From the NCBI RefSeq assembly GCF_963678975.1, contig NC_089278.1, positions 6,612,531 through 6,676,530 on the forward strand: a stretch of DNA of 64,000 nucleotides, given 5' to 3'. Below are positions 16,601 to 64,000 of the stretch, piece after piece. The notes beneath the pieces are model-generated. The model saw only the letters and a list, made by a program, of their open reading frames with translations, was not told the DNA's origin and made no database searches. Every line of letters begins with the position of its first letter. Within the stretch, counting starts at the first letter, position 1. The position numbers were made by a program, and so were the translations under genes. The DNA comes from Dysidea avara. Taxonomy: Eukaryota.

Positions 16601-17796
16601 ATAATGGTTGCATATTTATGCCGTAAATGTACATCTCCTTTTTCCATTTGTGTTTCTTTACAGCGCACTATACATCTATAAAGCCATAGATATGTGCATC
16701 ATTGCATGCATGATGAGGTAATACATCATACTCTATGAAACCTGGACTGGCTTACTCTATAATACCTCTACCTCTTACTCTGGAAACTGAAAACCTTCTC
16801 TTAACTCTTTCATAATGAGCTGGCTACCCTGCTGTCTAAGCGTTTCACTGTTGAGGTCATCAATAATGTGTATATATCTGTGGCTCTATAGATGGATATA
16901 TACTCCTGTGGACCTCGTGACTGCTGAGTCTATAGGACGTCCACTGTATGTGATCCCCCTCCAGTAGGTCTTTATAGGTATCCTTTTCTGTTGGCATACA
17001 TATATCGATCCCTTTTTAGCTAACAGATTTAAACAAATTTCTTCTAGCTTTTCATAGAGATGTGTGCCGGGGTGGAAGGGAGTGCCATATTAGGGCTAGT
17101 TAATTATATAATAAAAATATAATTTTAAAAAACATAATGAGGCAATCAAATGGTAAAGCCTTGTGAGAATCCCACTCTATTGCTAAGTCATTAATTGGAT
17201 CATAGACCAGAAAATTCAATTACAGAGGAACCAACAAGCATTATTGCATGTCTGTACCAATACTTTCTGAAGTGATCAATTTATAACCATCAGTTACAGT
17301 TTATCCACCTGTCATGGTGTTACTAGTATCTTAAAACATATCATCTGAAATATCTGATTAAATTAGTCATGACATGGCAATTATGTACACAAAGCACCAC
17401 TAATAATGCAATACTGCTCTTCCGTAAAACGATATTAAAATCTGAATGTGGCATAACAACAGTATAATCCATTATGGATTTATAAAAATTTAAAAGGGAG
17501 AAATAAGGATTGCTGAAAAAAACAAGAATACCAGAAGGGATTGCTGGGGTGGCAATGTAAACCACAAATTCCTATTTCGCCTTGACAAAGCTTTTAGAGA
17601 CATTGAGTTGGGTTTTGTGCTTTATATTACCACCCCAGCAATCCCTTTTTGTTTTGTTGCTTTTTTCAGCTTTCCCCTTAATTTATAATACTGTATATAG
17701 GACATGCGTACCCAGTGGTAGTGCATATGCATGCATTCAGTGACATACGTACCATGTATATCCTTTACATTACACTGTCACACTGTTGTACCACTT

Positions 17797-18720
17797 TACA
17801 AGTGATATAACAATGTCACCAAAACCTACTTCACTTCATGATGAACCTGCAATAAAATAAATGTGTTCTTGTTTCTCCTTCATGCGGTCAACAGGTCCTG
17901 ACTAATATTGAGGTCAGTGGATGTAAGTCATTGCACGACACACACACACTCACTCACTCACTCACTCACTCATAGGTTATTGATATAGCATATCTGTAAG
18001 ATGCATGCATATATGAAAATTTTCATCTTTGTATTTACAATGTGGTCATTGTCATTACCGTACTTGTTATCCTATGCATCAGTATGGTATACACAGTCTA
18101 TCAGTTATTCACTCCCTGTGAACATGGTCCAATTGAGCCTACACACACATTCTATCTCATATAACTACAGTATACATTAAACCAATACATACTGAGTTTC
18201 TCTCAAAAGCACTTTTTTTATCATCACCCTTGAGGGGATGATAATCCTCATCACCTAGCACCCTCAAGGGGAGGATATAATCCTAATGTTTATACTCACT
18301 GTAAGCTATGGAGTTTCTGATAGCATCAAAATGCTCTACAGAACAAAACCATTTAATCTGCAGCTGAGATAGAGGAAAAACTGACTGTTTTTTGGATCAC
18401 CTTATAAAATCAATTTTAAAAGTTCACAAAGGTCAATCTGGGATGGCCAAAATGACATTAGCAATTACAAATAAATTTGCCAAGTTTCATGGTATTATTT
18501 AAAAGTGCGTGCATGCACTTAAGTTTCAAAGGTCTTAGCTATTGTATGTTAAAAATAGTGCTAAGAGAAATAACATTTCAGCTAACCAGATGATTAACAA
18601 CGACAGTAAAGGTGTCAAGAGTAGAGATGTGCAGTAAGTTTGACTCCATTGCAGGTTCAGGAAGACTGTACACTTTTATGGTTTCTACAGAGGAATTTAT
18701 GTGGAAACTTTGATTAGAGT
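17797..18720. repeat. Segmental duplication: about 920 bp, roughly 95% identical to 51521-52400, same orientation. Contains a (CA)n/(CTCA)n microsatellite at 17941-17973 and a hairpin CACCCTTGAGGGG…CCCTCAAGGGG.
   Basis: A base-by-base comparison of the two intervals shows long identical runs. Examples: caatgtcaccaaaacctacttcacttca…, tatgaaaattttcatctttgtatttacaatgtggtcatt…, ctgcagctgagatagaggaaaaactgactg…. Confidence 0.85.
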
Positions 18721-18759
18721 TTATGCATATAAACTCTAATCAGACACTATTATGGTTAT

Positions 18760-19333
18760 TATGCATATAAACTCTGACACGTTGAGGAGTTCTTTAGCTG
18801 AACACTAACGGTGGACAATAGTAACACTGTAATATCGGCGGGCCTGAGTGCTTCTCACTTCAATGCCTGTTTCCACTTCAGCATATTCTTCCAACAATTG
18901 AGACAGCTTCTAATAAATCAAGAAAACCAGTGATATCAAGAGAGACATTTTAACCCACAATCAATACCTCTGACTGAGCATCCATATCATAAGGCAGGTC
19001 AGCCTATTGAGGTATTCATATATTTATACCCTAACTAACTATCTAACTAACTTTATTGCCAGCTAGGATGACGGGCTTTAACTGAGGACCTTCAGTACAA
19101 TGTTTGATCAGGGGTAACCAATAGGTAGTGAGCTGTTAGCAACATTACATGGCGGCTGACAAGTATAGCAACCACTAACCTTCTCCATTGCAGCCTCATC
19201 AGTCAGTGAATAAACAACACACACAACATGAGACTGTAAACAAAAAGTAATCACCCAACAATCTACATGTTGGCTACCTTAACAATCTCTTCCATCAATG
19301 CCTCTTCATTCTGTTCTTGACCTAACATAACAA
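18760..19333 (-). pseudogene. Inverted partial duplicate of the Miro/RHOT locus (60225-60795). It carries copies of Miro exons 4-9 and their mini-introns on the minus strand, with no upstream exons, so it is a gene fragment or pseudogene.
   Basis: The reverse complement of 18763-19333 matches 60225-60795 almost base for base. At one end aactctgacacgttgaggagttctttagctg is the reverse complement of cagctaaagaactcctcaacgtgtcagagtt. At the other end ctgttcttgacctaacataac is the reverse complement of gttatgttaggtcaagaacag. Junctions: 18712-18762 carries a short tandem duplication, tatgcatataaactct(aatca/gaca). Confidence 0.85.
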
Positions 19334-19334
19334 G

Positions 19335-19965
19335 CCAGAACATTAGACATATTATACTAGCGCCATGGCAACTATGCATCCTCACGTGACTAAATAATTG
19401 CGCTCGTTAAATCACTGCACGTGAAGAATGCATATTGGATGAACCTAGATTTTGAGCATATGTTATAGTGCGCTTGAAGGCGTGGAGTATATTAAATACT
19501 TTAGGTTTAAGGAAGAAATTCCATCCCTCCTGGAGGAAGACTGAGTGTGGCCCCGACTAGACATTGGGTGACCTGCAGTTCGAATCTTGGATTTTTTTCC
19601 TTACTTTGGCCCCTTTTCTGTTACACCTTTTCAGTCAGTGAGTAAGTTAAGTCATTAGGTCTAAGTCCCTGAAATTGGGTTAGGTAATCCTAAGGCTGCA
19701 GCACATGTTACTGTCAGACCTTCAGTGCTGGTCACTGTAAAGTGCTAATAATAAAAATAATAAAATATTAGAAAACAAAGTGGAGTATATGAGATTTATT
19801 ACCCATCCAAAACAGCCTAAATAGAGTCTCTCCACGCCTCCAAGCACAATATAACATATGCTTAAAATTGAATCGCTATGCGTTCTTCACGTGCAGTGAT
19901 TTAACGAGTGCGATCATTTAGTCACGTGAGGACGCATAGTTGCCATGGCGCTAGTATTATCGTAA
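19335..19965. mobile_element. Foldback-type element with about 145-bp inverted arms (19351-19495 and 19800-19945). The arms contain CACGTGA motifs. The loop carries a nested SINE-like insert.
   Basis: ctagcgccatggcaactatgcatcctcacgtgactaaat…gcgcttgaaggcgtggagtatatt versus its near-perfect reverse complement …gcatagttgccatggcgctag. A solo arm plus the same 3' flank recurs at 36790-37230. Confidence 0.75.
19500..19790 (+). mobile_element. SINE-like element: tRNA-like B-box (AGTTCGAATCT), conserved body, (TAA)n/(AATAAA)-rich tail. Partial copies at 28283-28462 (+) and 29101-29150 (-).
   Basis: The interval …gggtgacctgcagttcgaatcttgg…ccttttctgttacacctttcagtcag…cagaccttcagtgctggtcactgtaaagtgctaataataaaaataataaaat is shared nearly identically with 28295-28460. 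Confidence 0.65.
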
Positions 19966-20146: not shown

Positions 20147-22620
20147 TTTAGCCGAGCCTACAGCAGAAACAGCCGTGGATGAGGTAAGTAATCTGAGTGT
20201 AATGTGAAATAGAGTCTAAAGCAGTTATACGGGCACAATGTGGAGTCTATGAAATTTATAAACCCAAAGGCTCGGGCTGTAGCGCACGACGTATAACTAT
20301 TATTTATCCATACTGTAAACTAGCTATAAATAAGTAAATAATAGTATCAGACAATTTCACTGAAACGCAAGCAGTTGACATACACTGTACAACGTTATGG
20401 GTGGAAGCATACACACCCGCATACATAGCTGACCCGCAGCTTGAATGTCATAATATAGGTTGCCTACACAATAGATACCAAGTGCTTAGGTGCCATATAT
20501 ACATATAATATAATGTAGTCTTCAGTTCTAGTATAGTCTGGGCCCAGAAGAGGCTGCAGCTCCACAGTCTGATGCCCTGCGGTCATCTCCACAGAAGTGG
20601 CACTTGTACAAGTATCTGCTCCCTAAAGCATGAGCCATCAAAATTCCATTTATAGCAGCAGGCCTGCCTCTTTTTGTCATATGGTTTGGGTTTTGAAGGT
20701 TGACCTTTGGACCAGGAACACTGCTTGATGGCCTTTGGAGGGACAGGCACCTCCCATATATTGAGAAGTTGAGTTCTCCCCATACACGAATCCCTTTGGC
20801 TGCTGCCCAGATTCTGAAGTCCTTGTTTTACTGGATCCACAATGACCCACCCAGGTCCTTTGAGAGCTGAACCATAAAAAAACTGTGAGCCATAAGCCTA
20901 TCATGGGTTGTGGATGGAGATGCGGCTAGAGCTGCCGAATAAACTGAAAAGGCTTGCAGCCATGATGATATGTCAACAATTGCTTTTTCTTCTTCGGAGA
21001 CTTGTCATCAACAAGTAGGATGGTCTGACCACCTTGGTGAGAGACAGTAAAAGTGTCTGGCCTCTGCAGGGAGTCATAAGATAACAAGAACTCCAACTTG
21101 ACAAACTTCTAGCGTTGAATCTTCTCCAATGTTTTCTGGGGAATAGGGGGGAGTCCTTCTGCAATTACCACCAAAGGCTGTCTGACCTCTGAAGTATCAG
21201 CACTCAGACCATCAACCAAGACCGGCAAGATAACTGGAAGATTCACCTTCATTAGTCCTCAATGAAGGGTCCACAGGTAGTACCACTGCTGCTCCTATAC
21301 AAGTACAAGCAGGTGACAGCCTGTAATTAATTACATGACTAGCATGTGTCTATAAAATAAAAGCTGTCTTGGCTAGAAGCTCAGCTACCACTGAATGAGC
21401 TGTCAGACCAAAATAACCGAAAAGACAGTGGACACATCTAAAAGGGCCACTAGGTAATAGTGGCTGACACTGGCAGTGAACTGCCACTCTTGAGCTCGCC
21501 CACTCTCAAGGGGGCACAAGTGCTCAGTGAAGTGTGACTCAATGGATAAGTGCATGCGGAGAGCACAGGAGACAACATAATTATTATTTGTGTGTACGCT
21601 ATAATATTAAAAGCGTATGAAATTTACCAGGTGGTGGAGCGGACGAACTTGACGGACCTGACAGTAAGGGGTGAAGACCAGCTGGCTGTAGAATTCCAGC
21701 TACAGCTTGTGCAATTCGTTGCACGTCTCCCTCCGGTAAAGTTGGGCTATGCTTCACTTGGAGAGAGAGAAAAACCAGTGAACTCGAGCTTGAACTAAGA
21801 ACTGTGAACCAGCAAACTTGAGCTTGGCTTAAAACTCGTTACTAAGTGAAAGTGAGTAAGACCCGCTCAAAGTCAATATATATATTTATGAGGCTCCGTG
21901 ATACAAAATTATCCGGGGAGTTTATTGTCCGGTTATGAGTTAGCCGTGAATAAAATATTAAGTAAGCATTCAGTTGACTAACATACAGTAATGAGTGTAC
22001 AGTTGACCTTCAAGTTAAACCCTTTTAACCTGTGGTTAAAATTGGATAAATATGTTTTTTAATATAATCTTGTACAAATTGCGGTATTTCAGCATGATTG
22101 AATAATGCAGCATTCACTTGCCATGATGATAAATTAATTACATACTACCATTAACTCTTGATACTACTGATACTACCAATAAATGGAGTTATCTCTCTTG
22201 TTTTGATGCATGGAATGATCAACACACACAGTGGTGTGTTGTGAAGCCAAGAAAGTTAGTGCACCATCCCAATAAGTTGTTATCAACATAAAGTTGTTTT
22301 TGCTCTGTTTCCTTTTGCAGTAGACAAGGTAGGGCAGCCTGCACTAACAAATTTGAGTGAAATCACTTAACCATCCATTACCAGATATATATGCTACCAA
22401 TATTTTCTTTGTTTGCACACTTCACAAATGCAATCTTGCAATAATTTGGCACACTTAAAGAGAGTCCAAAGGTCCAATTTCAGCAACAAAGTGGCAAATG
22501 CAAAGCCTTTGCTACTCTTTTCCAAGTATTACTACACTTGCTTCATGTGTATTCCAATAAATAAGAAGGTGATTAAATTACAGTGCAGATGTTCCTCAGA
22601 ATAAACTAAGTTTTATGGTG

Positions 22621-27291: not shown

Positions 27292-28465
27292 TAATAAATG
27301 GTGTACATTTAATAGGAAACATTTACGTCACATTGGTACATTCCCACTACATGAAATATTTTACTTTAACCAGTCATCATGGCTAAGAAGGGTAAGATTT
27401 ATCTAATTTAATTTTCAAGTAGCAATTTAGTGGTACAAGGGAAACCACCTTTAGGCCATGGCCTTAATAGGCAGGTGGCTGCTTTTTACAGGTGGAGTAC
27501 TGTACAAATTTCTCACTCGGGTAATCTATTTGGTATTTAAAATGGATGGGTGGCTGCTAAAGAAGACAAGTTCCACTATCTATGGCTATAAATTTTGTCA
27601 TACTTGTGTAGCATCTCAACCCAGTGATCAGCAGTACCATGCACAGAGCTCTCTAACCCTTCAATATATCTACCAGTAAGTTAGCAGCAGCAGCACATTA
27701 AGTGGTGTGTCTAGCATGCGTATAGTCTGCAGGTGATGTTATAATGGTGAGGAGAGCAGCATTGACCGTAACATGCCTGATGTGTCCATAGTGTACTTAC
27801 TGCACTTGGAATGTACAGGCAAACTGATTAACACTCATGACTGGATGAAGGTTATTGTCTAACGTTAAGTGCAATTCTTATATATTTCTTGTAGGCATTT
27901 GTCTCCGTCATGTCTTCTGATAGTAGTGAAATGGATGATGAGTCACTACAGTATCCTTACTATTCTACATTCTCCTCTCCTTTGCTGTGACTGACCTTGA
28001 CAAGTTGCAGTGAACGGTTTCACTCTGCAGTGGCACAGCTTCAATTCATGGGGTTTGTTAGACCAGCCAGAAGGAAGAAAGACCACATGCAAAGACTCAC
28101 CTGGTATAACTGATCACAGAAGAACCTCATTGTGTTTATGTAATGGCTAAATGAACTTTATCTATGTTGACCTGTGGGTAGATTCTATGCATGTGATGTT
28201 TGTTTAATTGGGCGTGTACTTTCATTGTTTGTTTGTGGTATTTAAAGAGGTGTCTTTCTAGCCAATGATATCATAATTGGCTAGAATTGGAGGGATTTTT
28301 CCCCTTAGTTTGGCCCCTTTTCTGTTACACCTTTCAGTCACTAGGTCAAGTCATTAGGTCTAAGTCCTTGAAATTAGGTTAGGTAATCCTAAGGCTGCAG
28401 CACATGTTGCTGTCAGACCTTCAGTGCTGGTCACTGTAAAGTGCTAATAATAATAATAAATGTTG

Positions 28466-28860
28466 TTTATCCTTGTTAGTATAGCTGGGGCCCTGCCCAC
28501 TATAAAACCTCCACTCAGTGGAGGTTTTATAGTGGACAGGGCCCCAGTTGTACTAACAAGTGTAGTTTGGTATTATACAGCAAGTCCAGTGTTGGGGGTA
28601 ACGCGTTACATAATAATTATTGCTTTTGTGGTAACGAAGTAATATAACAAAATATGCTGTAAAAACAGGTAATATAGCTGGGGCCCTGCCCACTATAAAA
28701 CCTCCACTCAGTGGAGGTTTTATAGTGGGCAGGGCCCCAGCTGTACTAACAAGCGTAGTTTGGTATTATACAGCAACCAGTGTTGGGGGTAACGCGTTAC
28801 ATAATAATTATTACTTTTGTGGTAACGAAGTAATATAACAAAATATGCTGTAAGAACAGG
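28466..28860. repeat. Tandem duplication, 2 copies of about 195 bp, each containing a perfect hairpin GCTGGGGCCCTGCCCACTATAAAACCTCCACTCAGTGGAGGTTTTATAGTGGACAGGGCCCCAG
   Basis: 28466-28660 is nearly identical to 28664-28858. The hairpin was read directly. Confidence 0.85.
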
Positions 28861-29516
28861 TAATGTAACTCAAGTTACTTTACTTGCAATGTAACGTGTT
28901 ACCTAAGTATTGAAGTTACTGTAACGAGTCTAATATTACATAATATTCTTTAAGTAACAAAGTTACTGATTTAGTTAGTAATCCATTGAGTAACGCTTAG
29001 CCACTACAAAGTAACGAAGCCTACTGAATGAAACTTATTCACCAGCTTCTTGCTTATAACGAAGATTTGCACATTGTCCAACAACGCAATAATGTCACGT
29101 GATTATTATTATTATTATTAGCACTTTACAGTGACCAGCACTGAAGGTCTATGATAAAGTGGTAGTTTCACACGTGACAGCTTAAAGCTATGTAATATTA
29201 TTATAGTTACTTTATTATATGGGTAATATGTAACTGTAACTAAATAGTTCAGTTGTAAATAATATGTAACGAGCTACATTTTAAAAGTAACTGTCCCAAC
29301 ACTGACAGCAACTGTTGAGGAGAGTGTAGTGTGTACAGGATATCTGGTTATCAGGCTTGTATGAAACATCAAATTCCTGCTATAAGACTATCACCAAGAG
29401 GTAACAATAGTAGGGATGCCTTGCCATCACAATAGGCAGTCAACAAGGAAGCTGCCAAGAAATCTAAACCTAGTAAGAAACATGTAGCCAGGCAAGAAGA
29501 GAATAGTGATGTTGAT

Positions 29517-30263
29517 TATTATTATTATTATTTATTACAGGTAATTTATAAGGCTAAACAGCCTGTTACACCTGATCAACAGGTAAAAAAAGTACAAGTA
29601 GACTAATTACATACATTTATACATAGTGTTAGATGAATATTGGTCAATCAATTTCTTAAAATCATCAACTGATGCTGCACATGCTACTTCTTGGGGTAAA
29701 TTATTCCATGGTTCAACAACTCTTCTTGTAAAAAAATATTTCCTGGCATCTGTTCTTGAAAAATATTTAAATAGCTTAAATGTATGACCTCTGGTATGGG
29801 TAATGGGTGAAAAAGTAAAAAAATCAGAATGGTCTATATCATACTTATCATGTAGCATATTGTAGACAGCAATCATGTCACCTCTATAACGTCTATAATG
29901 TAATGATGGCAAGTGAAGTACTTTCAATCGTTCCTCGTAGTCAAGATTTCTTATAGATTTGATCATTCTAGTTGCTTTCCATTGGATTTTTTCTAATTTT
30001 TGGATGTCTGTTTTATAGTGAGGTCCCCAAACCAAGTTACCATATTCTAAAATAGGACGTACTATTGATTTGTATAAACATGTAAATGAATCTACAGAAA
30101 TATCCAAAAAGGTCTGTTTAATAAGGCCAAGAAGTCTATTAGCCTTATTAACCACTGCCGAACACTGACTATGAAACTTGAGATTGCAATCAATCAACAC
30201 CCCCAAATCCTTTTCCTCATTTACCTTAACAATATCCATCCCATCCATCAATGTGCCCTCTGT
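29517..30263 (-). mobile_element. 5'-truncated non-LTR retrotransposon (LINE) 3' fragment with a (TAA)n tail, inserted into copy 1 of the orphan gene. The ORF 29607-30251 encodes the reverse-transcriptase C-terminal / post-RT region.
   Basis: ORF '…LYKSIVRPILEYGNLVWGPHYKTDIQKLEKIQWKATRMI…' is typical of the CR1/RTE/Jockey-type RT C-terminus. The minus-strand 3' end reads …cctgtaataaataataataataataatc. The insertion is absent from the paralogous site at 32760. Confidence 0.8.
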
Positions 30264-31399
30264 GGTAAAAGAACTGAAGTTTGATCTTGATAAGCCATTG
30301 AGGCATGCTTTAGAGCAAGTGTTTAATCATCAAGGTACAGTGGTGCTGACATTTCAAGGTTCATCATATGATCAGGTTGTGTAAAATGAGCTGTTGTACT
30401 TCTATTATGCTTGTACCAATCAACAGGTATCAGAATATGCTGATAATATCATATCTAGCTATAAACCACCAAGAGTAACTAGATCGATGAAATGCCATTT
30501 CACTGATTGTACAGTATGTTTTCTTTTCTTTTTTTAAGTAACCATTAATGTGTTATAACAGCTAGACACAACTGACTCAGTTGAGGAAATCAAAGTAGAG
30601 GTTGTGGAGGTGCTGATTTCAAACATTCCATCTTATGTACGTTGATCATTTGTTGGATGTGTGCAAGTTTTCGTCTACTCAATAGAAAAGAAAACTTAAA
30701 GAAGAATTTGGAAAACGTCAATTGATTCCTAAAATGACTGTGCATGGTCTCTCTGAAGACAACACTACCACCACCTCGCGTGTAGTAGGTGCAGTTACTG
30801 GTGGTGGACAGCAGGTTCTGACAATTGACACACAAGGTAGACCAGTGTTTTTCAAGGATTGTGAGCCAGCTGTCCCTCTTGATATACGAATAATATATAT
30901 CACTAAGATTTGGGTTTTCCAGCCACCAAAGAAACCTGACACTACACTAGTGTGTTGGTCAAACCAATGTATAGAGCTACAAGCAGTCCCAAATGTTTCT
31001 AAGAAATTAAATATTTTCAAACTGTAGGTGAAAGTTGCCACCGTATGTGTGTAGTGTGTATGTACATTGTTGCGTGCGTGTGTGGGGTGGGGGGTGGTTC
31101 AGTGCTTCTAAGTGCTACGCAGTCAGTGCCTCTCTTTGGCAAACTCCAGGCAACAGTATTTGTACTGGCCAAACTGACTATTAGAAGCTTACGAGTTTAG
31201 AGTTTGTGCACTGATGATGTCACTTAGTTCATACCAATCTCGTGCCCCTGCTAAGGTTTTGCAAGCCTTTCAGGGTAACCAACTTAGCTATGCACTTAGA
31301 GAGCAAAAACAGCTGTTTTCATAGCTAATACCTGGCATGTTCGCTCAATGGTGGATGTTACTGGTCCCATTGAAATTGCTGCCCAAAGACCTGGCAATC

Positions 31400-31401
<2 letters not shown>

Positions 31402-31446
<45 letters not shown>

Positions 31447-31490
31447 CATGCATGCGCGTGTGTGTGTTTATGTGTGTGCATGTGCGTGTA
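31402..31490. repeat. (GT)n microsatellite followed by GT/GC-rich degenerate repeats
   Basis: Direct reading. Confidence 0.9.
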
Positions 31491-33044
31491 CCTCTAAAGT
31501 CCTGTAGGTCAAAATGGTTTTTCCCCCTTGATGAAGTTTCGTTGTCAAAGTACAATTGTAGATACTACAATACATGCTCATCAACTAAAATTATTATTAA
31601 GCTAGTAGCATTATTAACAGCAGAAATTTGTATAAACTTTTCATCATTCCATTTCATACACTTCTGCGTTTCTTAGAGTGGAATATCAACACTCATCTCG
31701 CCAATCACAGAGTATTATTTGGATCAATTTGAGTACACTTCTGCCAATTAGATATGAAGTAATCGAGAACCAATTTTATATGCAAACTATCCAGAGACAT
31801 CACTACAACCAGCAACACCGATCACTGGTGGTGGTGATGATCCACCAACTGATGATGACTTTAAACCATCAACTGATGACCCTGATGATGGAGTAAGTTG
31901 ATGTGTTTTAAAATAAAATAAAAATTGTGCGGAACAGTCCACGTGCACTATCAGATCCATTCTACTACATTCCGAAGATCATTGACAAGGATGATTTTAA
32001 TTATCATGTACATGGAGGTGGGCATGGGGCAATAATATATCCTGTACTAGGTGGCTCAACCAATAATAGGATTAGCAAGGGACTGAAAATAGACAGTTCT
32101 GGTAACAGACTCGCCATACTTGATACCTCTGTTCTAAAGTTTGATATAAACATTTATCCAATTGATGACGATGTGGGCATTCAGTGATGATGAAGGTCCA
32201 GCACAAGAACTAGTTGTTTTAAAACACTTTTACACATTTTGCTAGTGTATATTGCGTGCGTGTGTGTGTGTGCGTGTGTGTATTTATAACCACTACATGC
32301 ATGTGATCTCATTGATTGTTGGTCCTCCCTCCCCTCAGGTAGTAGTGATGGTCACTGTTTAGTCTACTTCTCGGTTCTAAGCTTGTAACTGTCTGGTCAG
32401 TTGTACATGTCTTATGTTTATATAGTATATGTAATAGCTAATATAGACTTTAACCAAGTTGTGCATGTGTTTAATTGGGCATGTTCTTTCATTGTTTGTT
32501 TGTGGTATTTAAAGAGGCGTCATTCTAGCCAATGATATCATAATAAATATTGTTTATCCTTATTAGTATAGCTGGGCCTTGCTCACTATAAAACCTCCAC
32601 TGTAGTTTTGTTCATTCTTTGTCTAACTGTTGAGGAGAGTAGTGTTCAGGATGTCTGGTTATCAGGCTTGTATGAGACATGAAATTCCTGCTATAAGACT
32701 ATCATGTCAACAAGCAGTGAGTAATAAGAGTGTAGCCAGACAAGAAGAGGATGGTGATAATGTGCCTCCTGTGGCAGAAAAACTGCAGCTTGATCTTGAT
32801 AAGCCATTGAGACATGCTTTAGAGCAAGTGTTTAATCATCAAGGTACAGTGGTGCTGACATTTCAAGGTTCATCATATGATCAGGTTGTGTAAAATGAGC
32901 TGTTGTACTTCTATTATGCTTGTACCAATCATCAGGTATCAGAATATGCTGAAAATATCAGATCTCATTTTAAAAGCTATAAACCACCAAGGGAATGCCA
33001 TTTCACTACAGTATGTTTTTAAATTGTATATAATATGTTAGAGT

Positions 33045-33869: not shown

Positions 33870-36184
33870 CATGATTATTATTATTATTATTACTAGGACC
33901 GCGTCACATACAACCAAGTACATACACCAACGTGACAGCCCTCCTGGTGAGGCTATTAGGTGGTGAAGGCATGATCCCCTCAATATGTCACAGTGGTGAC
34001 AGATAAAACACAATAGTGGCATCGTAACTAAAGGCCACCAGTAGCTAAGTGCCAGTACATCATTGTTGTGGTAATGGCACAGTGATGTGTACACAGTATA
34101 TGTAATTATGTATACAAAATGTACAGGAGAGAACTATGCATTATTGTATGCAGCAATACATTATAGGCAATATCAAATTATTAGCCAATATACAGTAAAG
34201 TATCAACATCAACTAGAACTAAATAAGGTTCATCAGTGGTGAAGCAATGGCACAGTAACGGGTGACACACTATAATTATGCATACACAACTTGCAGGAGA
34301 TAGCTACACAATACCGTAGGAGTATGCAAGCCAGATGAATCAGATAAAAAAAAAGACAGCCAAGCCAGCCAGAACCTAGTAGCTAGCTAGCAAAGCCAGG
34401 TGAAGGCAAAAAAGATTAAGCATGTATTGAATTGCCTGACACCAACACAAAGGACGTTCGCCATGCCAGCTGCACAAGACAAGATTGTTTACATGTATTG
34501 TAAAGAGAGTGGCATGTGTTTTAATGTATTCTTGTATTGTTAATTAACTTTTTATGTGACTGGCAGCTGGCATGGAGACTTGAGACGTTACAAACATAAA
34601 AACTTACTTGTAATCTTCTTGTTTACGTGTATAAAGTGGCCTTTCCCTCTCCTGAGGTCACTTCACGGACATTCGCTAACCTTCTCCTTCGCCCAATCTG
34701 TAAATAAGCAAGGGTGTGGTGCTGGGCGTTATATAGAATTACACGTATGGTCAAGTCATCAGCACGAATGGGCGCAACGATTATACGTTTGTGCCTTCGT
34801 TCACAGGCGAATCGATCCCCGGTTAGTTTACGTCTCTAGGCCTCGTAGTTTTCTCAAACATTAATTATTAATTATTTATTTATTTATGACGTAATTTTAA
34901 CCGCGTTTCGTATTTTTCTTAGTACTTGGTTGTATAATTATTTTTTTTTTTACAAATTAATGACACAAGAAGTACATAATAAACAAAAACAAATTATCTC
35001 AGTTACATATGGGCCTCAGCGACCTGCACAGCAATCGGTGCCTCAGCAATGGGACAGCACAAACTGGACCTGGCACCACGAATGCACATAATTGCAGACC
35101 TCAACAAAGAGAAGCTCAATTTACATCTCAGCCATCCCATCACTATTCCATAGGAAAGACTGTGCTTTGCACTCAAAAGGTTGGCCAATCTCTTATAAAA
35201 CTGAGTAGCAGCATCACCCATTCCACCAGTAGTAGTAAAAATTAAGGGAGTAAATGAGGCATTCTCTACTTCATGAACCCGTTGTTGGTATTCACGTCTC
35301 TTTTCCTTGTCATGACGTCGGTATGCAGAGTGTAGGGGTTGATTTGAGGGTGCACTAGGGTTAAAAATTCTGACATCAAAGTATGACCTCTCAAATCGTC
35401 TTCCCCAAAAACCATTAGCTGCAATGTCAAGCCTTGCGTTATCATCACGATTAGCTGTTTTGTATTGAAGGGTCTCACCAGAAAGAGGCTGAAGGTGGGG
35501 TTCAGTGACAACATTGTTACAGACCTCGGAAAGTAAATTGGTAGTTAGATCACGCACTTCATTATGTCTCAGAGAAGGAAACCCGCCCTTTGGGCAAGAC
35601 AGAGCATGTTCTATGGTAAAAGAGTGACCACAGGCACAGGAAGTAGGGCAGGCAGATGGTAGCCAATGATAGCGAAGCGCAATTGCATCACGAAAAGCAG
35701 TTTTATGAAACACAAAATTATGCGACTTCAATGGAAGACAAGAGAGCCAATTCGATGCACCCTCCTCCTGAGCCAACATGACTGAGGAACGCATGCTAGG
35801 AGGAAGTTCATCGAACAAATGATTGGCAGATTGAAGTTGCTCTTGATGGCTCCTAGAGTGAAACTTGGATCGCAACTGAACCTGTGCATCAAGACAGTCA
35901 CCTAGTTGATGTACCTGAGAGATAATCAAGCCAACGAGACCAGCATTTACTTCTACAGAGCAGGAACGCTGCTGTGACACAACAATCGAAGGATCAAAAA
36001 CACCAAGGCCTCCTAGCCGCACAGGCAAGGCAAATAGCTTTCTCTCAACATCACCAGGGACAGTTCGACCCAATAGACTAGGAAGGAAAACAGATTTAAC
36101 AAAATGCTCAAGAGGAAGGAAAAGGTCTGTAGAACAAGAAGAAACACGAAAAAATAGTTCCATCGGAAAGAGAGACCATGACAA
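33870..36184 (-). mobile_element. 5'-truncated LINE-like retroelement. ORF 35003-36184 (393 aa) carries a CCHC zinc-finger-like motif (CACGHSFTIEHALSCPKGG…RHNEVRD) and a restriction-endonuclease-like PD-(D/E)xK region (ARLDIAANGFW…SYFDVRIFNP). A long 3' region holds an internal tandem repeat of about 190 bp (34040-34330) and ends in a (TAA)n tail at 33872-33895.
   Basis: Motifs were read in the translation. The minus-strand terminus …gtatgtacttggttgtatgtgacgcggtcctagtaataataataataatcatg shares TACTTGGTT-TGTGAC with the SINE 3' end at 20003-20022. No RT domain lies upstream; a MITE at 36311-36758 abuts the ORF start. Whether 33870-35002 is one continuous 3'UTR or includes a separate SINE insertion cannot be settled from the sequence. 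Confidence 0.6.
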
Positions 36185-36789: not shown

Positions 36790-37230
36790 TGGGTGGGTAA
36801 TAAATCTCATATACTCCACCTTGTTTTCTAATATACTCCACGCCTTCAGGCACAATATAACATATACTCAAAATCTAGGTTTATCCAATCGCTATGCATT
36901 GTTCACGTGCAGTGATTTGGCGAGCATGATTATTTTGTCACGTGAAGCCGCATAGTTGCCATGGCACTAGTATTATCGTAAGAAAACCAGCTGGTTTTTC
37001 CGAGCCTACAGCAGAAACAGCCGTGGATGAGGTAAGTAATCTGAGTGTAATGTGAAATAGAGTCTAAAGCAGTTATACGGGCACAATGTGGAGTCTATGA
37101 AATTTATAAACCCTCAGGCCCTTAGTAGCGCCCTCGCTTCGCTCATGCCCTACAGCCCGGGCCTTCGGGTTTATAAATTTCATAGACTCCACATTGTGCC
37201 CGTATAACTATTATATAAGGATTTCGCGGA
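36790..37230. repeat. Solo arm of the 19.3 kb foldback element plus a shared flank (homologous to 19800-19965 and 20147-20300). The flank contains a foldback GTTATACGGGCACAATGTGGAGTCTATGAAATTTATAAACCC…GGGTTTATAAATTTCATAGACTCCACATTGTGCCCGTATAAC.
   Basis: Direct comparison: cgctatgc.ttcttcacgtgcagtgattt…gcatagttgccatggc.ctagtattatcgtaagaaaaccagc, then ccgagcctacagcagaaacagccgtggatgaggtaagtaatctgagtgtaatgtgaaatagagtctaaagcag in both loci. Confidence 0.75.
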
Positions 37231-39284
37231 ATGTGTGAAGTTACACCATATATGGTAAGCGTAGCCACAAAGCGTGGTATATTAATTATTATGCCACAGT
37301 TTGCCGTGGTATATACCACAGCACGGCGCTTTTGATCTCAACCACAGGTGTGGTATATATATATACATATATATCATCATGCAGTATACAGAAGTACTGT
37401 ATAGTACGTATCATGGAGGTCCCCCCCCCCCCAAAAAAAAAAACAGCTTAGTTTTCTTTAAAACAGATATTCCAGGAGGGATGGTTGTCTGGAGAGCATT
37501 ATTAATGTGGTGTGCATTAGTTCAGTAGTCATTTAAAATAAGGAAAATTTTATATTTGAGTACAAAAAGTGAGGAAACATGGGAGGTCATCTACACTTAT
37601 ATATAGCTACTAGTGAACATTTAAAATAATGATCCCTACTCCAGTCATGGTGAAGTAAGAATTAAATGTCTACTAGTATAGCTGCAGGCGTAGATAACCC
37701 CCCTTGTTTCTTTTCTATGATCAGTACAGCTATGCTCAAATATAAAATTTCTATATTTTTCCTATGTTGATGTTAACTCTATTGAGGAAATCAAGGTGGA
37801 AGTTGTAGAGGCACTGATTTCAAATATTCCATCTTTCTGATGTTTATATTGTTGGATGTGTACGTACATGTTTTAGTTATTTTACACATAGTGGACAAAA
37901 ACAGAACATGATGATTTTGATCAGTGGAAAAAAGAAATTAATGAAGAATTTGTAATCGCTCATTTGGGGTCTCCCTTGATTCATGAAGTCTATCTGACGA
38001 CAACACTCACAAGTACAGGTCTGGGAAATCAAATTCCCTGTATTGGTAGCCAGCAGATTCTGACAGTTGACATAAAAGGTGGACCAGTGTTTTTCAAGGA
38101 TTATGATCCATCTGTTCCTCTTGATAGTAAGAATATTACGTAAAAAATAATATTACTAATGTTTGGGTTTTCCAGCCAACAAAGAAACCTGGCACAACAG
38201 TAGTGTGATGGTTATCTATAGTCACTAACTGTTATTTCTCAGAGTCTAACTATGGACCTCTAAGGTCCTGTAGGCAAAGTAGCTAAATCAAAATGGCTTT
38301 GCCTTTTTTCCTTTAATAAAGTTCTGTTGCCTGGTACAACAGACAATACATACTCTTATTACTATACTAGCAGTAGCAGTAGTAGTGATAGGAGAGCAAC
38401 TTGTGTAAACCATTCATTGTTCCATTACAGAAGCTTCTTTGTTTCTTAAAGTGGAATATCAACCCCCCTCCGAATCTTCACCACAGAAAATCATTTGGAT
38501 CAGTTTGAGTACACTTAAGCCAATTAGATATAAAAAAAGTGAAAACCGATTTTATGCAGACTTTTCACAGACATCATTACAACCAGCAACACCAATCATT
38601 GGTGGTGGTGGTGATCCACCAACTGATGATGACTCTGAACCATCAGCTCAGACCTCAACTGACGACTCTAATCATAAAGTAAGTTAACGTGTTTTTTTTT
38701 TAAGTTTAAAATGAAAATGTGTGCAGAATCCATTCTGGTACATTCCGAAAATCATTGATAAGGATGAGTTTAATTATCATGTAAATGGAGGGGAGCGTGA
38801 GACAATAATATACCCTGTACTAGGTGGTTCAACCGATAAAAGGATTAGCAAGGGAGATGGTGACAAACCTCCTGCCATACTTCATACCTCTGGTCTGAAG
38901 TTTGACATAAACAATCATGATGACACAAACATTTAAGGATCAAACAAAAAAAATCTGAAGCTCAAACATATAAACTGGTAGTTTTTGTGACACTTTTACA
39001 CACTTTGCTAGTACCTGTGTAGCCATTGTAAACAATATTATAAAAACTTGTGTGTGTTTACAACCACTACATGAAGTCTCATTGATGGCTCTCCCCTGGA
39101 TCCTCCACTGACACCTGGTAGTAGTGATGTGGTCACTGTTATGTCTGCTTCCCTGCTTGTAACTGTCTGATCAATTGTCTAGCTTGACTTAATTCCTCAT
39201 CCAATGAAGATACCTGATGATGTCATCATTAATAATATAGCTAAGACTTATGATTGGACAAATAATTAACACACCATTGGTATT

Positions 39285-39500
39285 ATGGTGTGTGTTGTGT
39301 GTGTGTTGTTGTGTGTGTGTTGTGTGTGTGTGTGTGTGTGTGTGAGTGAGTGAGTGAGTGAGTGAGTGAGTGAGTGAGTGAGTGAGTGAGTGAGTGAGTG
39401 AGTGAGTGAGTGAGTGAGTGAGTGAGTGAGTGAGTGAGTGAGTGAGTGAGTGAGTGAGTGAGTGAGTGAGTGAGTGAAATGAGTGAGAGAGAGAGAGAGG
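39285..39500. repeat. (GT)n then a long (GTGA)n microsatellite of about 35 units, then (GA)n
   Basis: Direct reading. It lies immediately downstream (3') of the terminal exon of the minus-strand coiled-coil gene. Confidence 0.95.
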
Positions 39501-45483: not shown

Positions 45484-46309
45484 CGCATACCTCTTTGCCA
45501 CCTGTCCATCAGTCCTCCTGACCCCCCATGGAGTCTACCCACCAGGCCTGAATAATCCAACTCTAATTACAACACTGTCTATTTAGTCCAGATGAGCAAC
45601 CTCCAGAGAGACAGACAAATCTCTAGGACGATAGTGGGCCTGGATCATTAATAGGCCTGGTGAAAAAATGCAAAGCAGTGTACACACATCCACCCACACC
45701 CACACGTACACAAAAAGCAAAGTCGTCAGCTACTGTATACACAATCATGCCTACCTAGTGAACCAGCACTGGGGCATCTGTGCACTACTGAGATGCTGAG
45801 TTGGTGTAGGCAAAACTTCTGGAGTAGGACTAGATCCTGCAGGATGCTGTACCATGTGTCATGAGTGAAGGTCTGGCCGGTACCCAAAGTTCCAACTGAA
45901 CTTCACCTATTATTCGAGATGGGTATTTGATTCCCAGTAAACACCAAGTACCTATATACAAATGGATGGGCTGCTTTCCCAGTTGACACCAGGTCACCAT
46001 GCAGGTCCCCATTTAACAGCTGGGTACGTACACACGCACGCACGCACGCACACACACAAAGCCCTCAGCTGCCATTGATATATTACCTGGTGAATCACTG
46101 GACCATGGCCAGTCATGAAGTGCTATTGAGTCAGCACAGGTATGTACGTCTCACAGGATTAAGTATGGCCTGTCATCCCACCTGGGCCTCACCTGTTAGG
46201 TGAGACATCGACAGTGGAAATTTGCTTACCCATTTAACACTTGCATGCATGTTTACCATTGGTAGCAGTGGCATAGGATAACTAAACTAGGTTTTCATGT
46301 TGGCTGGCT

Positions 46310-46830
46310 TTGCCACTGTTACTTAACAACAGCAACACAGTGCTAGCCCCATTACTGTTCCTATGCTACATCAACGACATATCTCATGATATCAGATCAA
46401 CAGTGAAGCTATATGCTGATGACATTCTAATTTACAGACCAATACTTACCATTGAAGATTGTGAAACCTTACAAAGTGACTTGGATCGTCTTCAGTCATG
46501 GGCAAATAAATGGAAAATGTGCTTCAATGCTAAAAAGTGTGAGTTTATACGTATATCTAATATTAAGCACCCCATCATCTCTCAGTATACCATCCAAAAC
46601 ACAGATATCCAGTGTGTTCCTCATGTCACGTATCTAGGTGTAACTATAGACCAGCACCTCACCAGGAATCAATTATAACACACTACTAATATCTCAAATA
46701 AAGCCAACTCAATCAGAGGCTTTCTTCAGCAAAACATAAGTTCATGCCCAATAACAGTCAAAGAAGCATACTATAAGACAATGGTAAGACCTATTCTTGA
46801 GCATGCTTGCTATATAGCCAATATCAGATG
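46310..46830 (+). mobile_element. LINE reverse-transcriptase fragment: RT motif YADDILIY, then the post-RT region …AYYKTMVRPILEHACYIAN
   Basis: ORF 46310-46678: …PLLFLCYINDISHDIRSTVKLYADDILIYRPI…LDRLQSWANKWKMCFNAKKCEFIRI…. Continues in a shifted frame to 46830. Paralogous to the RT C-terminus at 29607-30251. Confidence 0.75.
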
Positions 46831-50640: not shown

Positions 50641-51505
50641 CAGGGGCGGATCCAGGGGGGGGGGGCTTTGGGGGCTGAAGCCCCCCCCCCTTCACATTTA
50701 GACTTTACTTGATCAATATGCTAAGTATCATAATGAAATTTTGTCTTAGCATAATTATATGATCACTAATAATACAAATACTCATAAAACCACCTTATAA
50801 ACATCTTTCCAAGGCATTATCAGTGGATTTATGCTAAAGTTTATGCAACAAGGACCCGGATCAGCATTGGAGGTGTACAACGTCGAGATACTCTAATAGA
50901 GCAGTCAGCTAACTACTCTAATAGAACATTTACTGGAAACTTGTAGTTGGTTCTGTTATGGAATTTTTCCAAATCTGCCTGCACCTATACATACAATGAA
51001 GTACATTGGTTTGTTTAAAGGGCTTTATTCATCCACTTGTGTAGTTAATATATATGGCAATACTTAATTCAGGTACACAATTTCCATTGAAAATGCTCTC
51101 AGATTCAATCTTGTATTGTTCGAATTTCAAAATTTTCCACGTTCAACATTATTCTAACATGCACCTATTCAGTGTTGTGCAATTGTGAGAGGGGTGTATC
51201 ATGTACTTGGTTGTCTGTACCTACCCAAACTTTTCCATCAGCAAAATGCTTTAGAGAGCCATACCTATAATCTAAAGGCAGTATATGAAATATCTACAGG
51301 CAGAAAATATTATGAATTTTATGTGGAAATGTCTCCAAATTGCAGTATTTAGCATCTATTTTTCAAAAATTTCCTGGGGGAGCATGCCCCCAGACCCCCC
51401 TAGTTCAGCATGCTGGGAAGTGTGCTTTGCACACCTCTACCCAAGAGATTAGTACCTTGAGTTAGCCCCCCCCCCCCCCCTTTTATAAATCCTAGATCCG
51501 CCCCT
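50641..51505. mobile_element. Element of about 865 bp with terminal inverted repeats CAGGGGCGGATCCAGG and subterminal G10/C10 homopolymer tracts; related terminus at 45305-45345
   Basis: 50641 reads caggggcggatccagggggggggggctttgggggctgaagccccccccc. 51456-51505 reads …gttagcccccccccccccttttataaatcctagatccgcccctg. Confidence 0.7.
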
Positions 51506-51509
51506 GATA

Positions 51510-52400
51510 TAACAATGTCACCAAAACCTACTTCACTTCACGATGAGTCTGCAATAAAATAAATGTGTTCTTGTTTCTCCTTCATGCGGCCAACGTATCA
51601 TTAGGTCCTGACTAATATTGAGGTCAGTGGATTAGGTCATTGCACGAGTGTGTCACACACACACACAACACACACACACACATAGGTTATTGATATAGCA
51701 TATCCGTAAGATGAATGCATATATGAAAATTTTCATCTTTGTATTTACAATGTGGTCATTGCCATTACTGTACTTGTTATCCTATGCATCAGTATGGTTC
51801 TTATCAGTTATTCACTCCCTGTGAACATGGTCCAATTGAACCTACACACACATTCTATCTCATATAGCTACAGTATACATTAAACCAATACATACGGAGT
51901 TTCTCTCAAAAGCACTTTTTAAAATCATCACCCTTGAGGGGATGATAATCCTCATCACCTAGCACCCTCAAGGGGTGGATATAATCTAAGCTATGGAGTT
52001 TCTGATAGCATCAAAATGCTCTACAGAACAAAACCATTTAATCTGCAGCTGAGATAGAGGAAAAACTGACTGTTTTTTTGGATCACCTTATGAAATCAAT
52101 TTTAAAAGTTCACAAAGGTCGATCTGGGATGGTCAAAATGACATTAACAATTACAAATAAACGTGCCAAGTTTCATGGTATTATTTAAAAGTACATGCAT
52201 GCACATAAGTTTCAAAGGTCTTAGCTATTGTATGTTAAAAATAGTACTAAGAGAAATAACATTCCAGCCAACCAGATGATTAACAACGACAGTAAAGGTG
52301 TAGAGATATGCAGTAAGTTTGACTCCATTGCAGGTTCAGGAAAGACTGTACACTTTTATGGTTTCTACAGAGGAATTTATGTGGAAACTTTGATTGCATG
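51510..52400. repeat. Segmental duplication partner of 17785-18720
   Basis: See the 17797-18720 feature. The 75-aa ORF at 52228-52455 lies inside and lacks coding hallmarks. Confidence 0.85.

Positions 52401-59360: not shown

Positions 59361-64000
<4,640 letters not shown>

Follow-up and report, generated by a model that had tools for sequence, protein, structure and literature searches.

Positions 17803 to 19353 of the window (the whole 64,000-nucleotide stretch analyzed here) form a 1.55-kb composite of noncoding sponge DNA in which copies of two nearby segments have been put together: one from downstream of COQ4 and one, inverted, from inside the Miro gene. We consider it most probable (roughly 70%) that the composite arose by chimeric repair-mediated duplication, with linked DNA captured during repair of a double-strand break or a collapsed fork, and that it is neither a mobile element nor a functional unit. 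Its appearance is that of a common DNA repair scar and not of a working element, and no function is indicated.

Two duplicated segments lie side by side in noncoding DNA

Both duplications were confirmed by BLASTN of the window against itself and by global alignments, and sequence similarity falls to random within a few bases at all piece boundaries. The left-hand piece (piece A, 17803 to 18715, plus strand) is a direct copy of noncoding DNA at 51505 to 52395 (plus strand), its partner and presumed donor, which lies 0.9 to 1.8 kb past the stop codon of COQ4, a minus-strand gene (Coq4 domain at 53500 to 53757; Pfam Coq4, E = 2e-20). The two share 90.7% identity, counting gaps, over 926 columns (E = 0), and in their MAFFT alignment, 836 positions match, 43 are substituted, and 46 columns are gaps, which group into 9 indel events. 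A (CA)n/(CTCA)n microsatellite accounts for some of these differences; once it and the indel zones are set aside, 28 of ∼812 sites are substituted (3.4%). The right-hand piece (18770 to 19353, minus strand) matches the reverse complement of 60213 to 60791, a plus-strand interval inside the intact Miro gene. The two donors are separated by 7.8 kb and lie 33.7 kb (piece A) and 40.9 kb (Miro) from the acceptor site.

A previous sequence-only reading of this DNA had described a same-orientation duplication of the COQ4 3′ region, an inverted Miro copy, and the juxtaposition at 18 kb of two source segments 8 kb apart. BLASTN self-comparison and global alignment bear out the first two of these, with coordinates moving by no more than 20 nt in either case, and the composite does contain both segments. 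Its proposed extent of 17785 to 19333 captured a real composite but was too short, as the mosaic runs past 19333 up to an inverted-repeat element, with local repeats patched together from there as far as ∼20.3 kb.

The structure was read from one assembly record, from a host that is a demosponge. One set of gene calls contains no gene between 16401 and 21109, and exact-ORF look-ups returned no ORF on record within or beside the composite. Exact-pattern scans with a Miro exon 9 33-mer and a piece A-specific 25-mer yielded no matches in JGI metagenome contigs, and look-ups by exact ORF found no second contig with the flanking genes. Five further contigs of this assembly, 104 kb in total, contained no copies of piece A, the Miro piece, or the arms of the inverted-repeat element; across the window and these contigs, each piece has only one other copy, nearby on the same chromosome. 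Segmental duplications are conventionally defined by a length of at least 1 kb and an identity of at least 90%. Piece A (913 bp at 90.7%) and the Miro piece (584 bp at 98.5%) are each shorter than this, and the 1.55 kb of the composite is a sum over donors that are not contiguous.

The Miro piece is an intron-containing gene fragment

The Miro donor was placed within its gene by spliced peptide, tblastn, and alignment. The parent gene is on the plus strand, with exon 1 at ∼59.3 to 59.41 kb, and extends beyond 63.7 kb; the best match to its spliced peptide is the mitochondrial Rho GTPase of Geodia barretti (65% identity). The copy begins with the last 27 nt of intron 3, continues through exons 4 to 8 and introns 4 to 8, and stops after the first 35 nt of exon 9, leaving it without a start codon, without exons 1 to 3, and without anything beyond mid exon 9. 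An earlier description of exons 4 to 9 with introns of 44 to 58 nt was reproduced in its numbering and sizes when we spliced the Miro gene by hand (the five retained introns measure 44, 47, 48, 58, and 54 nt), except that exon 9 was copied only for its first 35 nt. Copy and donor are 98.5% identical over 588 columns, and all differences are intronic (substitutions at 18936, 18937, 18940, and 19174, the first three clustered within 5 nt, and a 4-bp GCCA insertion at 19333 to 19336); exon bases are 100% identical to those of the parent. Identical exon patterns were recovered by tblastn at the parent and copy loci, with no further Miro-like exons elsewhere in the window, and neither end of the piece carries a poly(A) or poly(T) tract. 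The Miro piece is a nonfunctional gene fragment, and its previous designation as a pseudogene fragment is upheld by its inverted, intron-containing structure and its missing 5′ and 3′ exons. It also lies, as had been noted, on the strand opposite to nearby genes: the recognizable neighbors, annotated by Pfam scans of long ORFs, are on the plus strand (STOML2-like at ∼11 to 12.3 kb, ORC3 at ∼25.3 to 25.7 kb).

Several familiar origins for such a fragment were considered and rejected. A retrocopy or processed pseudogene is inconsistent with the retention of all five introns, a start inside intron 3, and the lack of both poly(A) and target-site duplication. A relic of a whole-gene Miro paralogue would not show 99% identity within the piece and random similarity outside it, with no other Miro-like exons in the window. 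An inversion with staggered-break duplications is contradicted by the Miro gene itself, which is continuous across 60212/60213 with exons 1 to 3 directly upstream on the same strand, and by the partner of piece A, which is direct, nonadjacent, and 7.8 kb from the Miro donor.

A templated filler joins the two pieces

Piece A and the Miro piece are separated by 54 nt (18716 to 18769) that repeat analysis resolves largely into short copies, direct and inverted, of local sequence. A perfect 14-nt inverted repeat, its arms 4 nt apart (TGATTAGAGTTTAT GCAT ATAAACTCTAATCA; 18711 to 18724 and 18729 to 18742), takes its first 5 nt from the final 5 nt of piece A, and a 17-nt direct repeat, TTATGCATATAAACTCT (18721 to 18737 and 18759 to 18775), closes its second copy with the opening 6 nt of the Miro piece. 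Within the filler, 18716 to 18724 is the reverse complement of 18767 to 18775, 18729 to 18742 is the reverse complement of 18711 to 18724, 18759 to 18769 is a direct copy of 18721 to 18731, and the motif TATTATG occurs twice. The DNA hairpin formed by the 14-nt inverted repeat has a z-score of −4.4. None of 20,000 shuffled versions of the junction produced an inverted repeat of at least 14 nt, none produced a direct repeat of at least 17 nt, and a single tile of the window out of 1,421 combines even weaker repeats of both kinds. The filler additionally has ATGCAT, ATGGTT, and TCAGACA in common with the 40 nt immediately beyond the piece A donor (52396 to 52435, plus strand), whose 6- and 7-mers recur in scrambled order; shared 6-mers cover 25 of the 54 filler bases, a coverage equaled by 0.36% of background 40-nt windows in a test chosen after seeing the data.

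The sequence-only reading had reported a micro tandem duplication at this junction. The repeat that it recognized is real but is only part of a longer templated filler with direct and inverted copies, and this combination points to a repair mechanism that the reading did not name: the structure of the filler is a signature of template-switching end joining. When the filler is reconstructed base by base, several orders of snap-back and loop-out steps fit.

The right boundary abuts an inverted-repeat element

On its right side, the Miro piece adjoins the outer terminus of a foldback, MITE-like inverted-repeat element of ∼600 bp (19354 to 19957), identified by self-BLASTN and repeat search. The arms of this element (19354 to 19487 and 19830 to 19957) are 86 to 93% complementary, ATTAT is present on both of its sides (19351 to 19355 and 19956 to 19960), and its hairpin has a predicted energy of −148.9 kcal/mol (z = −18). 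It contains a dispersed module, termed SINE-like only for its A/T-rich tail and dispersed copies, which is the one part of the element copied on other contigs; tRNA and Rfam scans gave no matches and no support for a SINE head. Both this module and retrotransposon pieces are present in the 104 kb from five other contigs. On the plus strand, the composite ends read ...CAAG|TGATATAAC on the left and ...ACATATT|ATACTAG on the right, and microhomology at these outer junctions is weak or ambiguous (0 nt at 17802/17803 and 0 to 4 nt at 19353/19354). No terminal inverted repeats bracket 17803 to 19353 (the sole wide pair is a 31-nt, 77% AT-rich match), and no target-site duplication or flanking direct repeat was seen around the composite by sequence inspection. 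In a separate observation, a tract of 114 bp located 800 bp away is 100% identical to 37000 to 37113, with flanks at 83 to 94%; we regard this tract as a second sign of recent ectopic exchange.

The two pieces differ in divergence

Piece A is about five times more diverged from its partner than the Miro piece is from its donor (3.4% and 9 indels versus 0.7% and 1 indel; Fisher P = 4e-4). If the pieces were equally old, the Poisson probability of 4 or fewer substitutions in the Miro piece would be 3e-4 to 1e-3 and, by our own arithmetic, ∼0.03 even with the Miro donor assumed to be completely frozen. The suggestion that high identity implies a recent event therefore holds for the Miro piece but not for piece A. 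Unequal divergence implies either that the composite arose in two steps or that one event copied a different allele. Because of the fivefold difference, we lean modestly toward two steps, in which an older copy of piece A would later have been truncated and then patched with Miro sequence; the alternatives are a single chimeric event and two events at a recurrently breaking site.

A proposed break-repair model for the composite

We infer a break, a deletion, a pre-insertion sequence, the polymerases involved, and an order of events, which might have run as follows. The break would have fallen in intergenic DNA rich in transposons, where the outer edge of the long inverted-repeat element lies; elements of this kind can extrude hairpins and are plausible fragile sites. 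A free 3′ end may then have primed synthesis on linked ectopic templates 34 to 41 kb away on the same chromosome, copying 0.9 kb of noncoding DNA from downstream of COQ4 and, in inverted orientation, 0.58 kb of genomic Miro sequence with its introns. The nascent ends would have been joined by an error-prone, synthesis-dependent microhomology pathway (SD-MMEJ or polymerase-theta type), in which repeated snap-back and re-priming on the piece ends could generate a 54-nt filler of nested micro-copies. The observed layout agrees with two-ended SDSA: piece A adjoins the left flank, the Miro piece adjoins the right flank, and the messy junction is in the middle, where two nascent ends would meet. The breakpoints have the features of this repair class, including templated filler, 5 nt of piece A and 6 nt of Miro sequence in the junction repeats, and neither poly(A) nor target-site duplication, and the direct and inverted repeats extend into both flanks (the end of piece A and the start of the Miro piece), as in SD-MMEJ products. 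Weighing against a repair origin are the distance of the donors (34 to 41 kb), the length of piece A (913 bp) relative to the human proximal class, the weak or ambiguous outer microhomology, and a divergence gap unlike that of one simple event.

Among known systems, the closest parallel is with repair-mediated duplications, which are known in vertebrates and arise when SDSA copies nearby chromosomal DNA into double-strand breaks (Pace, Sen, Batzer & Feschotte 2009, PMC2671141). In this vertebrate class, donors are linked, acceptors can be chimeras of two donors, breakpoints carry filler and microhomology, and exons are sometimes copied in inverted orientation; in human proximal cases, most donors are within 5 kb and lengths reach at most 619 bp (PMC2671141). 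Our composite shares with them an intrachromosomal linked donor, sub-kilobase pieces with sharp ends, breakpoint filler with microhomology, a chimeric acceptor drawing on two donors, inverted copying of exons and splice sites, an acceptor within transposon sequence, and the absence of target-site duplication and poly(A). It departs from them in its donor distances of 34 and 41 kb, in the length of piece A (beyond the 619-bp maximum), in the fivefold difference in divergence between its pieces, and in its host, which is a demosponge and not a vertebrate.

The filler by itself resembles SD-MMEJ and polymerase-theta insertions. Loop-out and snap-back SD-MMEJ products contain inserts that form direct or inverted repeats with their flanks (Yu & McVey 2010, PMC2943611), and the filler likewise has loop-out direct and snap-back inverted repeats (PMC2943611; Roerink et al. 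2014, PMC4032859), repeated motifs that take bases from both sides of the junction, and signs of several priming rounds. This pathway accounts for the 54-nt filler only, however: typical templated inserts are shorter, and pieces of 0.6 to 0.9 kb need more processive synthesis, by SDSA or MMBIR. Like MMBIR/FoSTeS products (e.g., PMC8421209), the composite combines serial switches to nearby templates in either orientation with copy-number gain and complex junctions, and the adjoining inverted repeat could stall a fork; unlike them, it has weak outer microhomology and is a small, local event with no larger rearrangement.

Alternative explanations

An assembly artefact, in which the composite came from a chimeric join or from other-haplotype fragments put in the wrong place and the differences between copy and source are allelic, is very unlikely. 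All of the sequence derives from one metagenome-assembly record (ERZ25068803:ctg11508l), which the window matches at 100% identity and in which 17803 to 19353 corresponds to 104,584 to 106,134 (record position = 123,937 minus window position); no second contig carries the flanking genes, and the differences do resemble allelic variation (3.4% with indels for intergenic DNA; 0.7% for the gene, confined to introns). However, misjoins normally run through a shared repeat, and the regions around 52395 and 60791 have in common no repeat that could mediate one; the copied pieces meet via a unique 54-nt filler, in itself a templated insertion of a kind typical in biology. A long-read assembler would also need three false junctions within 1.6 kb to yield pieces of 0.6 to 0.9 kb that are sharp at both ends, and the copies carry private indels. 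We see marginally less reason still to invoke transposon capture (transduplication), in which a Pack-type DNA transposon or a Helitron would have carried the COQ4-downstream and Miro fragments to 18 kb. Juxtaposed fragments from separate loci are a hallmark of Pack-MULE and Helitron capture, and the composite shares with such elements the side-by-side placement of fragments from unrelated loci, a gene part with introns, and a transposon-rich region full of debris, with the Miro piece touching the end of the inverted-repeat element. Yet the fragments are beside that element (19354 to 19957) and not between its arms, no enclosing terminal inverted repeats or target-site duplication surround 17803 to 19353, and neither strand has a 5′-TC...CTRR-3′ arrangement with a 3′ hairpin at the composite ends, as expected of a Helitron inserted between A and T. 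Nor were further copies found in the 104 kb of other contigs, and the junction between piece A and the Miro piece is templated-repair filler, not a transposon end.

It is very improbable that the Miro piece is an RNA-templated patch, that is, a fragment of unspliced pre-mRNA reverse-transcribed by a resident retrotransposon enzyme to fill a break. The donor is a transcribed gene and reverse-transcriptase genes are abundant in the genome; moreover, class-2 templated sequence insertion polymorphisms, which are thought to be reverse-transcribed RNA from anywhere in the genome, display end-joining features and lack target-site duplication and poly(A) (PMC5110952), just as this distant genomic patch does at its presumed break. 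The composite differs from them in keeping its introns and in having linked donors: retention of five short introns (44 to 58 nt) and a start within intron 3 are unlikely for RNA, piece A comes from intergenic DNA, and linkage of both donors in cis is what DNA-templated capture predicts. Least credible to us is a functional antisense or small-RNA source, such as a piRNA or siRNA cluster, in which plus-strand read-through would give RNA antisense to Miro exons 4 to 9. The inverted orientation of the copy relative to its plus-strand neighbors, its 100% exonic identity to the parent, and the transposon-rich locus all fit this idea, but the contrast of 4 intronic and 0 exonic differences is not significant (P ∼0.05, or 0.23 if the three clustered changes were one event), the Miro piece is so young that its identity needs no selection, and Rfam and tRNA scans matched no RNA family or tRNA. 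Equally remote is a broader version in which long inverted repeats would have made 17.5 to 20.3 kb a hotspot of repeated breaking and patching, and plus-strand read-through of the newly captured inverted Miro fragment would give putative antisense or small RNAs (e.g., piRNAs from a transposon-graveyard cluster) acting on Miro 41 kb away.

Implications

The composite has little functional importance; its value is as a clean and well-preserved example of a probable repair-mediated chimeric duplication whose templated junction is fully readable. The locus does call for care in annotation, as it could give a false partial Miro gene model and as reads from Miro exons 4 to 9 will multi-map. We know of no catalogue of such repair scars in demosponges. 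If the hotspot and small-RNA reading were true, it would be a sponge small-RNA locus aimed at a gene and caught early in its birth. Should population data bear out the event, template-switching break repair would be seen to move gene pieces, among them exons whose splice sites are intact, across tens of kilobases in early-branching animals; this is one route by which exon shuffling, chimeric transcripts, and antisense sources can arise.

Structure of the composite duplication

Self-BLAST of the window and global alignments recovered both pieces of the two-piece duplication proposed in the sequence-only reading. Piece A (17803-18715) aligns in direct orientation with 51505-52395, downstream of COQ4, at 90.7% identity over 926 columns; with microsatellite and indel zones left out it carries 28 substitutions at about 812 sites (3.4%), and nine indel events separate it from its partner. 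It contains a short (TGAG)n/(CTCA)n microsatellite (17935-17972) whose counterpart in the partner (51.64-51.68 kb) differs in length and type. The Miro piece (18770-19353) corresponds, in inverted orientation, to 60213-60791 within the intact gene for the mitochondrial Rho GTPase Miro; identity is 98.5%, with four substitutions (three within 5 nt) and a single 4-bp insertion. All of these differences are intronic, and the exon bases are identical (301/301). Homology is lost abruptly at all four boundaries. Splicing the parent Miro gene by hand gave, following an exon with the ATG that ends at about 59407, plus-strand exons at 59457-59515, 59710-59791, 60240-60283, 60328-60381, 60429-60509, 60558-60593, 60652-60702, and 60757-60858, which bears out the assignment of the fragment to exons 4-9 with introns of 44-58 nt; it runs from 27 nt inside intron 3 to 35 nt into exon 9. 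By tblastn, Miro-like exons in the window are confined to the parent gene and this fragment.

The two pieces are separated by a 54-nt filler (18716-18769). The final 5 nt of piece A open a perfect 14-nt inverted repeat (TGATTAGAGTTTAT / ATAAACTCTAATCA, 4-nt spacer), and the opening 6 nt of the Miro piece close a 17-nt direct repeat (TTATGCATATAAACTCT; copies at 18721-18737 and 18759-18775). Behind the first copy of the direct repeat, an inserted AATCA is followed by the Miro bases GACAC again, and TATTATG can be read twice at the junction. Shuffling the junction 20,000 times yielded neither repeat, and even weaker repeats of both kinds were combined in only one other 91-nt tile among the 1,421 in the window. 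The filler and the 40 nt immediately past the A donor have ATGCAT, ATGGTT, and TCAGACA in common; equal sharing occurs in just 0.36% of background 40-nt windows, a post hoc test that makes the resemblance suggestive only. The left junction (17802/17803) has zero microhomology; at the right junction, where the Miro piece adjoins the outer terminus of a neighboring inverted-repeat element (19354-19957), microhomology is 0-4 nt, varying with the reading of the overlap.

Origin of the composite

The structure of the composite (17803-19353) matches a repair-mediated duplication in which linked chromosomal DNA was captured at a break by synthesis-dependent strand annealing (SDSA). In vertebrates, Pace et al. 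described 824 closely linked duplications that bore the hallmarks of SDSA and had filler and microhomology at their breakpoints; 20 acceptors were two-donor chimeras, and the copied DNA included exons, sometimes in inverted orientation (PMC2671141). In their two-ended model, the 3′ ends of the break invade different templates and both new strands then anneal (PMC2671141), which predicts the layout seen here, with one piece per flank and the untidy junction central. Loop-out and snap-back products of synthesis-dependent microhomology-mediated end joining (SD-MMEJ), a process linked to polymerase theta (PMC2943611; PMC4032859), are inserts that repeat their flanks in direct and inverted orientation and reach into both (PMC2943611); the filler has exactly this product structure, its repeats extending into piece A and the Miro piece. 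Breakage or fork stalling could plausibly have been provoked by the long inverted repeat at the presumed break.

Other origins were weighed against the same structure. Because the Miro introns are retained and poly(A) is absent, the fragment is not a retrocopy. Pack-type capture is rejected since no structure brackets the fragments, the inverted-repeat element lying beside and not around them, and Helitron capture since the unbracketed composite has ends unlike Helitron termini. An inversion with staggered-break duplications is contradicted by the continuity of Miro across 60212/60213 and by the A partner, which lies in direct orientation 7.8 kb from the Miro donor. Piece A, its partner, and the Miro piece were unmatched in 104 kb drawn from five further contigs of the assembly (L004-L008), which argues against a common dispersed repeat, although the sample is small (at the density of piece A in the window, about 3 copies would be expected; P of none, about 0.04). 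Inverted-repeat arms and nearby MITE-like pieces were likewise unmatched there, but several parts of retrotransposons and the SINE-like module between the arms did recur. Mis-assembly is probably not the source of the composite: mis-joins usually pass through a common repeat, whereas here the filler between the pieces is unique and biologically typical, and the copies carry private indels.

The claim that high identity denotes a recent event holds for the Miro piece, which is young, but not for piece A, which is about five times more diverged (Fisher P = 4e-4). At equal age, the Miro piece should have gathered 15-16 substitutions, but it shows 4 (P = 3e-4 to 1e-3); with an unchanging Miro donor, by our own arithmetic, about 10 would still be expected (P about 0.03). 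This gap favors an older A copy that was afterwards broken, trimmed, and patched with Miro sequence, and we put the probability of two steps rather than one event at about 60%. Alleles of marine invertebrates may differ by several per cent in intergenic sequence and little in genes, and a single recent event templated by an allele other than the assembled one is possible; it would also account for all Miro differences being intronic.

Genomic setting

The window is demosponge host DNA. It is gap-free, with 38.6% G+C and the short GT-AG introns of a eukaryote. The hand-spliced Miro peptide (gene on the plus strand, 59.3 kb to past 63.7 kb) has its top match in Geodia barretti (65%), and a rough COQ4 peptide (minus strand; Coq4 domain at 53.5-53.76 kb) matches Dysidea avara along its whole length (65%; runners-up, 32-38%). 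A STOML2-like gene (about 11-12.3 kb; Band_7_C domain) and ORC3 (25.3-25.7 kb; ORC3_N domain) lie on the plus strand. The same sequence appears, reversed, at positions 59,937-123,936 of an ENA metagenome-assembly record (ERZ25068803:ctg11508l, 575,991 bp; record position = 123,937 minus window position), located by an exact protein match to a 386-aa transposon open reading frame (ORF). Identity is 100% across the 11.2 kb compared; the record is the window's own DNA, so its loci are not independent evidence. Its gene calls are prokaryote-style ORFs that split eukaryotic exons into separate "genes."

The interval from 12.3 to 23 kb has no convincing host gene and contains foldback elements, SINE-like pieces, and transposon ORFs with frameshifts. 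The 600-bp foldback, MITE-like element adjoining the Miro piece has 134-bp arms (19354-19487 and 19830-19957) that are complementary at 86-93%, with ATTAT on either side and a predicted DNA hairpin of -148.9 kcal/mol (z = -18). One arm and its right flank have a second copy at 36836-36991 (83-86% identity), an old local duplication common to both loci. Within the element, a SINE-like module with an (AAT)n/A-rich tail (19589-19773) recurs at 28293-28460 and 29099-29150 (minus strand) and is dispersed across other contigs at 71-92% identity (L006, 708-796 and 3044-3197; L008, 7988-8088). A tRNA-like box, GGTGACCTGCAGTTCGAATC, precedes the copy at 19.5 kb; ARAGORN and Rfam gave no tRNA or RNA-family support. 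Just left of piece A, a 169-bp near-palindrome (17507-17675; 62-nt arms with 84% complementarity around a 45-nt spacer) represents a further foldback or MITE-like element; the other sampled contigs had no copies of it.

Between two MITE-like copies, 20152-20265 and 37000-37113 share a 114-bp tract at 100% identity, while the homologous stretches beside it reach only 83-94%. This tract, 0.8 kb from the Miro piece, has the look of recent gene conversion or patching and suggests a second recent ectopic exchange within the same 2.5 kb.

Retrotransposon remains lie at 35003-36163 (minus strand), 29515-30249, and 46286-46675. The first is the 386-aa ORF, with 1,808 relatives at E <= 1e-30, nearly all from ENA assemblies and some with RVT_1, and 88-98% identical copies on five other contigs; the second shares 98.9% identity with a portion of an RVT_1 gene on another contig (L004), and the third matches RVT_1 directly (E = 1e-12). 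Minus-strand ORFs at 20450-21260 overlap in all three frames and look gag-like or zinc-knuckle-like (e.g., ...ACCYKWNFDGSCF...CHFCG...); they had no Pfam match and probably represent a transposon gene with frameshifts. Copies at 30575-32082 and 37776-38855, separated by 6.7 kb and 77-82% identical, encode similar ORFs assigned to no family (e.g., ...YIPKIIDKD[DE]FNYHV[HN]GG...IIYPVLGGST...) and are either a local gene or a transposon duplication. An extended (TGAG)n/(CTCA)n microsatellite (39339-39482) generates spurious "THSL" repeat ORFs. At 28472-28864, a 194-bp unit is repeated in tandem (28477-28673 and 28670-28864; 96% identity), with a GC-rich palindrome inside each copy (GGGGCCCTGCCCACTATAAAACCTCCACT...).

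Significance

Nothing indicates a function for the Miro piece: the start codon and upstream exons are absent, RNA-family searches gave no match, and its exon identity is explained by its youth. If the composite were transcribed on the plus strand, RNA antisense to Miro would result, a possibility already raised in the sequence-only reading. The composite is a real yet ordinary repair scar; small chimeric duplications of this kind were already known, and this is a new example from a sponge.
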